From: an uncultured Clostridium sp.
Lineage (GTDB): Bacteria > Bacillota > Clostridia > TANB77 > CAG-508
Length of the DNA stretch: 64,000 bases
Assembly: GCA_946500265.1 (NCBI GenBank)
Contig: CAMMVE010000002.1
Span: 758-64,757, forward strand
Direction of reading: 5' to 3'
The position numbers and the translations under genes were made by a program. Shown here in pieces: positions 48,706-49,442 of the stretch. The notes below the pieces were generated by a model that did not search any database, was not told the origin of the DNA, and saw only the letters and a list, made by a program, of their open reading frames with translations. Position 1 is the first letter of the stretch. Each line of letters starts with the position of its first letter.

Positions 48706-48747
48706 AAAAAAGAACCTGTAAAACACTAATTTCACAAGTTCTTTTTT
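48706..48747 (-). terminator. intrinsic-terminator-like hairpin in the leader of the late operon
   Basis: Minus strand AAAAAGAACUUGU-(14 nt loop)-ACAGGUUCUUUUU, with an A-tract and U-tract flanking a 9 bp core that includes one G.U pair. Lies about 55 nt downstream of the predicted start from the 48809..48837 promoter. Confidence 0.5.
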
Positions 48748-48808
48748 ACTAATCTATTTCAAAAAATAAAAGGGGACTTAATTTTTTAACATATTTTTTG
48801 ATGTTATT

Positions 48809-48837
48809 ATTATAAAACATTGACTATGACGTGTCAA
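48809..48837 (-). promoter_or_regulatory. consensus sigma-A-type promoter (TTGACA, 17 bp spacer, TATAAT) facing the late operon
   Basis: Minus strand TTGACAcgtcatagtcaatgtttTATAAT. -35 = 48837..48832, -10 = 48814..48809. Starts 24 nt after the stop of the regulator gene. Confidence 0.6.
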
Positions 48838-48860
48838 GGACATCTTTCGGACATGGAATT

Positions 48861-49442
48861 TTACATTTTTCTTATACCATCTATTCCAAACATGAGAACT
48901 GCAATCTCTTCAATTGCAGCATTTTTATCTCTATTGACTTGCCTCTCACTTATATGATATTTTTTTGCAATTTCGGACACACGAGGTTGCTTTTTTCCTT
49001 TTATGTATAAGTCTTCTAAAATATGTGCTCGTCTGCATTTTTCGTCATTTTTACTGCTCTCTGCATCGAAAATATAAAAATTTTTTATTTTTTCTATATG
49101 TGTCATTATTATTTCAGTTCTTTTCTTTGATGCTAAAATTGATTGTACTACTGTTACTTCATCATACGCAGTGCAATATAATTTATCTAATATTTCATCT
49201 ACTGAGGCTGTTTCTAATTCTTTTTCACTTACAGTTGCTTGTTTGCAAAAACTTACAAATCTCCTATAATTTTTTAACAATAATCTAGTATTTTTTAGTT
49301 TTATATCATAAGTTATTTTTTCTTTTAATCTCTGTTCATTTTTAGCTTGCTCAATCCCCTGTTTAATTCCTCGTGCTACACCTGCAGCAACCATTTCTTC
49401 CATAAATTCTAGCATTTTGCTATCTTTTTCAGTTATTTCCAT
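48861..49442 (-). CDS. late-gene regulator with a sigma-70 region-4-like HTH (ArpU/RinA-type or antiterminator-type)
   Basis: 193 aa. The C-terminus RVSEIAKKYHISERQVNRDKNAAIEEIAVLMFG is a region-4-type HTH. Positioned immediately upstream of the packaging/late genes. Confidence 0.45.
   Translation of the reverse strand: MEITEKDSKMLEFMEEMVAAGVARGIKQGIEQAKNEQRLKEKITYDIKLKNTRLLLKNYRRFVSFCKQATVSEKELETASVDEILDKLYCTAYDEVTVVQSILASKKRTEIIMTHIEKIKNFYIFDAESSKNDEKCRRAHILEDLYIKGKKQPRVSEIAKKYHISERQVNRDKNAAIEEIAVLMFGIDGIRKM

Follow-up and report, generated by a model that had tools for sequence, protein, structure and literature searches.

A putative read-through switch for late genes behind a sigma-region-4-like regulator in a prophage of an uncultured Clostridium

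The window considered here, a stretch of 64,000 nucleotides from an uncultured Clostridium sp. (assembly GCA_946500265.1, contig CAMMVE010000002.1, positions 758 to 64,757), contains a candidate control unit for prophage late genes. Its elements lie on the minus strand in the order regulator open reading frame (ORF), repeats, promoter, A/U-rich leader, hairpin with a U-run, late genes. The late regulator gene (48861..49442) encodes a protein of 193 aa. The late block (20396..48598, about 28 kb) comprises a ParB-like gene, C5 methylase, ParB-N6 methylase, TerS, TerL, portal, major head, tail genes and endolysin, all behind the hairpin and on the same strand, as had been claimed in the original prediction for this DNA.

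The promoter is of the sigma-A type (48809..48837), with TTGACA at 48837..48832, a 17-nt spacer and TATAAT at 48814..48809; the −35 hexamer begins 23 nt after the regulator stop codon. It is the sole 12/12 match between 44 and 54 kb and the sole zero-mismatch match in the whole 64 kb. However, the rarity of the promoter within the window is weak evidence, because four matches are seen with one mismatch allowed, against 2.3 expected. We aligned the region downstream of the regulator for the window and ten viral contigs, and then analysed all 22 loci of the close family (12 non-redundant representatives). TTGAC-17-TATAAT is unchanged in 22 of 22 loci, the sixth base of the −35 hexamer being T in locus L114. 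It is this invariance, not the rarity, that argues strongly for the promoter, and the earlier claim of a promoter right after the regulator gene stands. Transcription is predicted to start at about 48802, and the promoter, judged solely by its consensus sequence, would be constitutive.

Two nucleotides after the −10 hexamer, at about −4 to +2, there is a second −10-like hexamer, TAACAT (48801..48806). It occurs as TAnnnT in nine of 13 independently chosen lineages, including phages 80alpha, phiFL2A, EFC-1, LWP01, Emery and phiCDKH02; such a hexamer would arise by chance at a given offset with a probability of 0.035, and the binomial P is 5e-11.

Candidate regulator-binding sites overlap the −35 hexamer and the spacer. 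The array (48821..48853) consists of TGTCC at 48853..48849, TGTCC at 48842..48838, GTCA at 48830..48827 and GTCA at 48824..48821, that is, TGTCC-N6-TGTCC-N7-GTCA-N2-GTCA, with the first three repeats 11 nt apart. It starts about 7 nt after the regulator stop codon and covers approximately −51 to −19. The TGTC array occurs once in the window, hence one target promoter is expected there; similar arrays are present in loci L022, L117, L030, L062 and L096. The TGTC/GTCA array presumably represents the sites at which the regulator binds; Ltr proteins are known from published work to bind direct repeats at a corresponding place (PMC3753634). Read as its reverse complement, the repeat gives the −35 core (GACA), which fits a DNA-binding domain derived from sigma region 4.

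The leader (48749..48802, about 54 nt) is followed by an intrinsic-terminator-like hairpin (predicted; 48705..48748). The original prediction had placed a hairpin about 55 nt past the start, and this was confirmed: RNAfold yields 20 consecutive base pairs at 48748..48705, including those between the A and U tracts, and a 4-nt loop, beginning about 54 nt from the predicted start. The core stem (48742..48711) has a folding free energy of −14.9 and is followed by TTTTTGAT, the U-run being at 48710..48705. The folding energy has a z-score of −5.0 when the leader is taken together with its downstream flank, and of −6.6 for just the terminated RNA, whose predicted length is about 95–100 nt. Our own scan for hairpins followed by a T-run produced ten coding-strand candidates in the window, with the 48748..48705 hairpin among the strongest; an energy lower than −14.9 was observed only at 28973..28933, inside an ORF (−15.5), and at 17705..17660, below the endolysin gene and outside the late block (−16.9). 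A preset terminator scan missed the leader hairpin solely through its limits on loop and stem geometry. Given its 20 bp and the U6 behind them, strong termination is predicted at this hairpin.

The first late cistron (48598..48693), encoding a small Cys-rich peptide, has its Shine-Dalgarno (SD) sequence GAAGG at 48693..48689 and its ATG at 48680, so that 11–12 nt lie between the end of the U-run (48705) and the SD sequence (48693). The peptide (MKYDICMKRECKNCFKQSKCF...), of the pattern CxxxCxxCx5C, runs across the start of the ParB-like gene (ATG 48598) in another frame; the Cys pattern is kept at the protein level where the DNA differs (L001, L004, L006, L109–L111, L116). With only about 12 nt between the T-run and the SD sequence, a promoter could not be accommodated behind the hairpin, and no promoter-like site matching at least 9 of 12 positions is found on the minus strand from the hairpin to the ParB-like gene; hence a promoter 3' of the hairpin was rejected. 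As the T-run is followed at once by the first late gene, any late transcript has to pass through the hairpin, and control by read-through is therefore the best reading of the locus.

In the close family the hairpin has been swapped at least three times for unrelated sequences, with the stem, the T-run and the position retained; the versions are GAACTTGT...ACAGGTTC, AAAAACTCACA...TGTGAGTTTTT and AAAGGCC...GGTCTTT, each followed by a T-run and then an RBS (ribosome-binding site), the start codon being 18–28 nt past the stem. The terminator is retained in all 22 loci (22/22), and the distance from the hairpin to the start codon is 18–29 nt in 16 loci with a promoter followed by a terminator, including all 12 representatives of the close family. 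In L106 the regulator is 92% identical to that of the window, yet both the hairpin and the first gene are different. The L106 case and the swapped hairpins show that the regulator, repeats and promoter form one module, and the leader, terminator and downstream genes another. Judging by the alignment, selection maintains a terminator-shaped element at this position. A DNA search of annotated phages matched the methylase region alone and yielded no close annotated relative.

The leader itself is unlikely to act as an RNA antiterminator. In the window, the part preceding the hairpin forms a weak A/U helix alone, and a permissive Rfam search of 44–54 kb (E ≤ 1) gave no match in the leader. In the relatives, the leaders are 14–60 nt long (some only 14–23 nt), A/U-rich and poorly conserved outside the close family, whereas the conAn2/canT-type systems use cis-acting RNA of 230–600 nt (PMC8191782, PMC11658703). 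Thus a protein factor is favoured, and RNA-based antitermination of the put, EAR, conAn2 or canT type was rejected, the leaders being too short, not conserved and without an Rfam match. A cis antiterminator, in which the 5' end CAUCAAAAAA pairs with UUUUUUGAUG after the hairpin, was rejected as well: it is an A-run facing a T-run, and the complementarity of CAUCAAAAAA and UUUUUUGAUG is not kept in the relatives L001, L004 and L006.

Just upstream of the terminator, the leader contains an anti-SD-like patch, UCCCCU (48776..48771). In the folding predictions, it is unpaired in the terminated RNA and paired with the SD sequence of the first cistron in the read-through RNA. C-rich patches (UCCCCU or CCUCC) are present in 15 of 30 leaders against 1.8 expected, ten of these 15 belonging to the close family; L015, L017 and L126 have such a patch too. 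Such a patch may provide an additional, translational level of control, or it may turn the terminated leader into a small regulatory RNA.

The original prediction described the regulator as sigma-region-4-like, and both the family and the structural model bear this out. Among the PHROGs, the protein matches number 1558 (E = 8e-42), a group without assigned function, and only weakly PHROGs 248 and 36 ("transcriptional activator/regulator"). Used alone, it falls into no family of Pfam or NCBIfam at curated thresholds, and the PDB sequence search gave no relative of solved structure. The named-family models considered were ArpU (TIGR01637), RinA (TIGR01636) and DUF1492 (PF07374); the RinA model gives E = 0.018, below the curated cut-off, and the ArpU model does not match. 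The regulator family comprises 367 clusters at 90% identity, all named "hypothetical"; at 50% identity, there are 468 representatives with E ≤ 0.001 and 180 with E ≤ 1e-10. The close relatives (69–92% identical) were found in viral contigs and in uncultured Clostridia from the guts of rabbits, sheep, goats and humans. In an alignment of 71 members, the C-terminal helix-turn-helix (HTH) domain matches Sigma70_r4/Sigma70_r4_2 in 10–11 members, an extracytoplasmic function (ECF) sigma factor model in nine and DUF1492 in three; one member matches the RinA model, and none the ArpU model. Sigma70_r2 matches neither the regulator nor appears among the top 25 families of the 71 members. Thus the regulator has no sigma region 2 recognisable from its sequence.

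The AlphaFold model of the regulator is all-helical (mean predicted local distance difference test score, pLDDT, 88; predicted template modelling score, pTM, 0.77). It consists of a 53-residue N-terminal helix (residues 5–57), a small bundle and a four-helix C-terminal domain; the sigma-region-4-like HTH covers approximately residues 106–190, and the family has a conserved N-terminal motif N51-T52..L55-L56..Y59. A Foldseek search of PDB gave no globally significant match. The best local matches are to sigma region 4 (template modelling score 0.5–0.7 over about 68 residues), and the best whole-chain matches are sigma factors (sigma-32, sigma-A) at a root-mean-square deviation of about 19–21 Å, which is not significant. 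The top 50 PDB matches of the model include only sigma factors and sigma region 4, and no Q protein. The nearest viral predicted structures (BFVD) are annotated as sigma70_r4, ECF, DUF1492 or transcriptional activator. In profile comparisons, hhalign aligned the regulator with ArpU of phiFL2A over 107 columns, including the NT..LL..NYR motif (E = 1.6e-4, 51% probability); with RinA of 80alpha and LtrA of phage 37 the HTH alone was aligned, and with Alt of TP901-1 nothing. From these comparisons, the regulator belongs to a distinct unannotated family within or beside the Ltr superfamily, ArpU being its closest, if distant, characterised relative. A Q-like identity was rejected, as the protein resembles none of Q-lambda, Q21 and Q82, either in sequence or in fold. 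Hence "lambda-Q-like", as the original prediction put it, holds for the layout and fails for homology.

More distant homologues, at 27–34% identity, were found by tblastn in annotated phages of Brevibacillus, Faecalibacterium, Listeria, Latilactobacillus, Clostridioides, Enterococcus and Bacillus. In every case, the homologue is the last gene of the replication module, ahead of the packaging genes (phages Emery, FP_Brigit, LWP01, EFC-1, phiCDKH02, Latilactobacillus phage TMW 1.1365 P2 and BCJA1c). Their downstream regions share aTGTTAnnATGrTAGnGTG, which we read as a TGn-extended −10, 2 nt and a second −10-like hexamer TAnnnT. Most of these relatives have the motif, a short leader, and a hairpin with a T-run directly before the next RBS, and they lack a good −35. 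The window has TATAAT-AA-TAACAT and L106 has TATAAT-GA-TAGTGTG; since the latter matches the distant motif, the window promoter and the distant ones are homologous.

The family alignment is too diverse to serve in a locus search, and searches with the single divergent members P0126 and P0138 produced no loci; hence loci were collected by a motif scan, in which the 19-nt core motif was used as a blind probe against 2.9 million viral contigs. It yielded 87 stretches, 80 of them usable loci. A family ORF lies within 900 nt upstream in 35 of these loci, and in 34 of the 35 it ends 16–63 nt upstream of the motif. The core motif is thus conserved, at the sequence level, well beyond an ordinary −10.

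The order of elements was classed in 40 non-redundant loci with a family ORF, a few automatic calls being corrected by hand. In about 30–32 of the 40 the promoter comes first, then the terminator and then the gene. A terminator is missing from about four loci (L023, L054, FP_Brigit and probably L030), the terminator precedes the promoter in two (L118 and L119), and one, BCJA1c, has no intergenic space. A terminator within 170 nt after the stop codon is seen at 31 of 40 regulator junctions and, with the same detector in the same loci, at 59 of 391 other same-strand junctions (odds ratio 19, Fisher p = 5e-16), the counts being not fully independent as many loci are interrelated. The regulators of L118 and L119 are 82–83% identical to P0131, and in these loci the terminator comes directly after the regulator and a promoter-like element next; the regulator of L117 is about equally close to P0131, yet there the promoter is followed by the terminator. 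It seems that L118 and L119 have undergone an exchange of the module that follows the regulator.

Several leaders contain tRNA genes or other structured RNA before the final terminator. Sequences of tRNA or tRNA-like type lie between the late promoter and terS in TP901-1 (L125, 2135..2376) and phiFL2A (L105), identified by ARAGORN, and in L021, L053, L062, L063 and L091, identified by eye. Being placed inside the leader, they would be expressed with the late genes.

The same order, that is, regulator gene, direct repeats, core promoter, leader, terminator, first late gene, is seen in three phages with characterised regulators: 80alpha (RinA), phiFL2A (ArpU) and TP901-1 (Alt). For 80alpha and phiFL2A the literature places the terminator before the promoter, whereas in our reading of the sequences the conserved promoter precedes the terminator.

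In phiFL2A (L105, GQ478084), the three published TTGGCGG repeats come right after arpU and are followed by TGCTAATAT-AG-TAATAT (TAATAT-AG-TAATAT), a terminator about 110 nt further on (14202..14225), tRNA-Arg (14629..14703), and a second hairpin, whose T-run immediately precedes the terS RBS. As published, transcription starts at a G 118 nt ahead of the terS ATG, a position determined with a kit for rapid amplification of cDNA ends that does not distinguish primary from processed ends. This position is 2 nt after the 3' end of tRNA-Arg, hence it is probably a processing site. From this mapped 5' end it is about 670 nt back to the repeats on which activation depends.

In 80alpha (L124, NC_009526; 1222..1372), rinA is followed by the repeats TTGGCAG/TGGCAG, TATTAT-GA-TAGTGT, a leader of about 60 nt, and the hairpin GGATTGGCTGATTATAGCCAATCC with TTTTTT, terS being about 40 nt further. 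In the work of Ferrer et al., RinA depended on DNA lying over 155 bp upstream of the mapped 5' end, on the far side of a factor-independent terminator, which the authors called unexplained. Counted from the core motif instead, the repeats fall at about −35 to −55, which is a normal spacing. Quiles-Puchalt et al. reported that a 59-nt block just after rinA sets the specificity, the downstream DNA being wholly different in 80alpha and phi29; the RinA proteins of these phages cross-activate, and the downstream DNA is interchangeable. In 80alpha, the specificity block coincides with the RinA repeats and the core motif and ends exactly after the motif. The strong hairpin with T6 lies between this block and the published 5' end, and no well-placed −10 is found ahead of that end.

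In TP901-1, the repeats bound by Alt are reported to lie between −76 and −32 relative to the start. A repeat-like sequence and a TATTAT −10 occur immediately after alt, which fits this spacing. The leader, about 480 nt, contains tRNA-Lys and tRNA-Ala and then a hairpin with a T-run right before the terS RBS. Of the phages studied in less complete records, phage 37 has a terminator downstream of ltrA and a partial match to the core motif, where the record ends; the record of phage 55 (LtrC), which starts inside the intergenic region, contains a hairpin with a T-run and a CCUCC patch.

In published reporter assays without Ltr, there was no read-through from the strong upstream promoter Pcad, while terS was expressed with Ltr as the sole phage protein; the authors concluded that the terminator precedes the Ltr-dependent promoter. 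If, instead, the promoter is the motif beside the repeats, these terminators stop ordinary transcripts and let the Ltr-dependent ones pass. In the library that we could search, no paper was found to link ArpU, RinA, LtrC or LlgA to antitermination.

From the sequence and a re-reading of published data, we propose, at about even chances of being right, that the regulator loads at the promoter and renders RNA polymerase terminator-resistant. Its target would be the phased TGTC repeats, which surround and overlap the −35 and spacer of a host sigma-A promoter. Transcription would start at about 48802 and reach the strong intrinsic terminator 54 nt on, which would also halt transcripts arriving from the early/replication operon. 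As long as the regulator is absent, transcription would yield no more than the leader RNA of about 95–100 nt, whereas with the regulator at the promoter the polymerase would resist the hairpin and enter the 28-kb packaging, virion and lysis block. This would be a switch of the lambda Q/PR'/tR' type built from an unrelated protein. It takes the promoter to be active without the regulator, the hairpin to terminate efficiently, and the regulator, and not another factor, to provide the read-through. The beta-flap at the RNA exit channel is occupied by sigma region 4, and it is there that Q proteins act; speculatively, a sigma-4-like protein in place of sigma region 4 could travel with the polymerase and hinder hairpin formation.

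The original prediction of control by read-through thus remains the best reading, given the swapped hairpins and the excess of terminators at regulator junctions, whereas its addition "rather than by promoter activation" was too strong. The regulator probably both aids initiation and promotes read-through. Its help at initiation is suggested by L023 and L054, which have no terminator, and by the distant relatives without a good −35. In the family of the window, where the −35 is of the consensus type and 22/22 loci keep the terminator, the latter should be the main control point.

Several observations weigh against the proposed antitermination. The Ltr regulators, relatives of the protein considered here, have been described experimentally as promoter activators binding direct repeats (PMC3753634, PMC3152322). 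In 80alpha, the 5' end past the terminator was mapped after removal of 5'-monophosphate RNA, and the authors judged it to be the true start. L023 and L054, with a promoter and no terminator, as well as L118 and L119, demonstrate that in these loci the regulator is not merely antiterminating. The regulator lacks any resemblance to Q. The efficiency of the hairpin is a predicted one, and the interrelation of the loci tempers the terminator counts. Finally, the second hexamer, at −4 to +2, is not in the transcribed region; the sigma-dependent pause elements known for Q loading lie elsewhere.

Some of these facts are what would be expected of a plain activator combined with a leaky terminator, where the regulator, as published for RinA, ArpU, LtrC and Alt, raises initiation only and an unaided fraction of the high flux reads through. 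The hairpin would then be a partial terminator, insulating the late genes from the early operon and damping basal leakage. Such an arrangement agrees with the description of the Ltr superfamily as activators acting on direct repeats upstream of the core promoter, with the position of the repeats, where class I/II activators bind, with the poor −35 of the distant relatives, typical of activator-dependent promoters, with the absence of a terminator in L023 and L054, and with the 80alpha 5' end reported to bear a triphosphate downstream of its terminator. However, the perfect invariant consensus promoter of the window's family should need no activator, and the hairpin, 20 bp followed by U6, is predicted to be strong. 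Moreover, an insulator would be cheaper upstream of the promoter, an order seen only in L118 and L119, and the published terminators fully blocked read-through from Pcad, whereas Ltr-dependent transcripts passed. On balance, we consider the leaky-terminator account a serious rival, though rather unlikely. If antitermination takes place, it might be due to another factor, an early phage protein, a host factor or translation coupling at the first cistron, with the regulator only activating or repressing the promoter. There are many small early ORFs without assigned function upstream, and the anti-SD-like patch with the close RBS suggests further control at the RNA level. But ArpU, LtrA, LtrB and LtrC were the sole phage protein needed for terS expression with the whole intergenic region in a heterologous host, and it is the regulator gene, repeats and promoter that travel together while the hairpin and the downstream genes vary, which makes a different factor improbable.

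The same elements could also be viewed mainly as a prophage small-RNA gene, producing an RNA of about 95–100 nt whose exposed C-rich seed would pair with SD regions in mRNAs of the phage or the host; that it precedes the late genes would then be of secondary importance. In line with this are the consensus promoter, the strong terminator, the UCCCCU left unpaired in a loop and the excess of C-rich patches (15 of 30 leaders against 1.8 expected). A precedent is the terminated PR' leader of Stx phages, which is reported to act as a small RNA (PMC7547250). On the other hand, the leader is poorly conserved outside the close family and in some relatives is only 14–23 nt, ten of the 15 C-rich cases come from one family, and the transcription of the late genes is left unexplained, with no other promoter in sight. 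As the main function of the unit a small RNA is quite improbable; as a by-product it is compatible with read-through control and hence is not a true alternative. Finally, the regulator might be an alternative sigma factor recognising the core motif, in which case the hairpin would only terminate the early operon, or else stabilise or process the mRNA. The best whole-chain folds are sigma-32 and sigma-A, nine family members match the ECF sigma model, and the core motif is kept well beyond a normal −10. Yet no fold match is globally significant, the signature of sigma region 2 is absent, the N-terminal half consisting of the 53-residue helix and the small bundle, and the window promoter agrees perfectly with the sigma-A consensus. 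Three or four phased repeats are not what a sigma factor binds, its target being a single −35 element, and the T-run after each swapped hairpin marks a terminator, not a stabiliser. This leaves the sigma-factor explanation highly improbable.

The unit has features of three known groups of systems. Like lambda Q/PR'/tR', it has a regulator gene immediately upstream of a constitutive-looking late promoter, a short leader, an intrinsic terminator that would give a small terminated RNA, and one long late operon; candidate protein-binding sites lie within the promoter, including the −35/−10 spacer, and a −10-like element lies near the start. Unlike in lambda, the protein is built on the sigma-region-4 fold, with no similarity to the three Q proteins compared, the −10-like element is at −4 to +2 and not in the transcribed +1 to +25, the host is a Firmicute, and antitermination is inferred from sequence. 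The leader preceding the hairpin is 54 nt here, against approximately 190 nt before the terminator in lambda.

With the Ltr superfamily (RinA, ArpU, LtrA, LtrB/DUF1492, LtrC, Alt; PMC3152322, PMC3753634, PMC13123087), the unit shares the position of the regulator as the last gene before terS or the late operon, the C-terminal sigma-70-region-4-like HTH, the phased direct repeats right after the stop codon, and the factor-independent terminator between the regulator gene and terS; with 80alpha and phiFL2A, it also shares the core motif TAnnAT, 2 nt, TAnnnT. Unlike the named Ltr families, the regulator is below every curated threshold, and the window's family has a perfect −35. Further, the literature calls RinA, ArpU and LtrC activators and places the terminator before the promoter, whereas the sequences considered here give the promoter before the terminator. 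Finally, conAn1/conAn2 of pLS20-type plasmids and canT of Tn916 are, like the present system, from Firmicute mobile elements with terminators serving as insulators before long operons, and these terminators are overcome only upon activation of the element (PMC8191782, PMC11658703). The short, A/U-rich, poorly conserved leaders distinguish our loci from these systems, and ConAn1 (PF17362) belongs to a different protein family.

Other features of the window lie within or near the late block. Weaker hairpins with T-runs are located in its intergenic regions at 40193..40168, 38021..37998 and 21544..21514 (minus strand), one of them directly after the major head gene (38022..39041, minus strand) and one before the endolysin gene (20396..21406, minus strand). 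They are the kind of terminator that a processive antiterminator would need to pass. The TerL gene is split into three ORFs (44654..45127, 44106..44582 and 43682..44050, minus strand), the middle one in a different frame; the split (43682..45127) could be caused by assembly errors or frameshifts in a decaying prophage, or could be programmed. A reverse-transcriptase-like ORF (23386..23973, minus strand, 195 aa; PHROG 1423, E = 2e-54) adjoins the tail-fibre genes; it is probably partial and may represent a diversity-generating retroelement.

Just upstream of the regulator, there is a short gene similar to S-adenosylmethionine (SAM) synthetase (50022..50822, minus strand, 266 aa; PHROG 1569), in which the N-terminal MetK domain alone is detected. 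The corresponding stretch of locus L012 is 1194..2372, and in Faecalibacterium phage FP_Brigit a SAM synthetase gene is also directly upstream of the regulator homologue. The combination of SAM synthetase, two DNA methyltransferases and the ParB-like gene suggests a linked methylation or anti-restriction module. On the plus strand, inside the regulator ORF (48967..48990), there is a terminator-like hairpin, GCAATTTCGGACACACGAGGTTGC, followed by TTTTTT, with no plus-strand gene nearby; it might stop antisense transcription.

Late control based on antitermination and the Ltr superfamily are both already known. New are the large unannotated family of regulators in phages of gut Clostridia; the conserved layout of promoter, leader and terminator common, by our sequence comparison, to phages with RinA, ArpU and Alt; and the hypothesis of a Q-like switch on the sigma-4 fold. 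A function is thereby proposed for PHROG 1558, that is, for hundreds of clusters annotated only as hypothetical. More tentatively, and with considerable doubt, the late regulators of the sigma-region-4 type in general (RinA, ArpU, the new Clostridia family and perhaps LtrA–LtrC) may be promoter-loaded antiterminators, analogues of Q derived from sigma region 4; at present RinA, ArpU, LtrC, Alt and LlgA are treated as ordinary activators. If the hypothesis is true, the true late promoter would be the core motif beside the repeats, with the terminator inside the leader, and some published starts past the terminator would be processed ends, as exemplified by phiFL2A. This would explain the binding of RinA more than 155 bp upstream of the mapped start, resolving the puzzle of 2011. 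The prophages would also be predicted to produce, as a by-product, small terminated leader RNAs with C-rich seeds. Phages of Gram-positive bacteria would then possess their own counterpart of lambda Q on the sigma-4 fold, a new class of antiterminators. Control of the late genes sets the timing of DNA packaging and lysis in temperate Firmicute phages. In staphylococci, enterococci, listeriae, lactic acid bacteria and gut Clostridia it hence also governs transduction, active lysogeny and the movement of pathogenicity islands.

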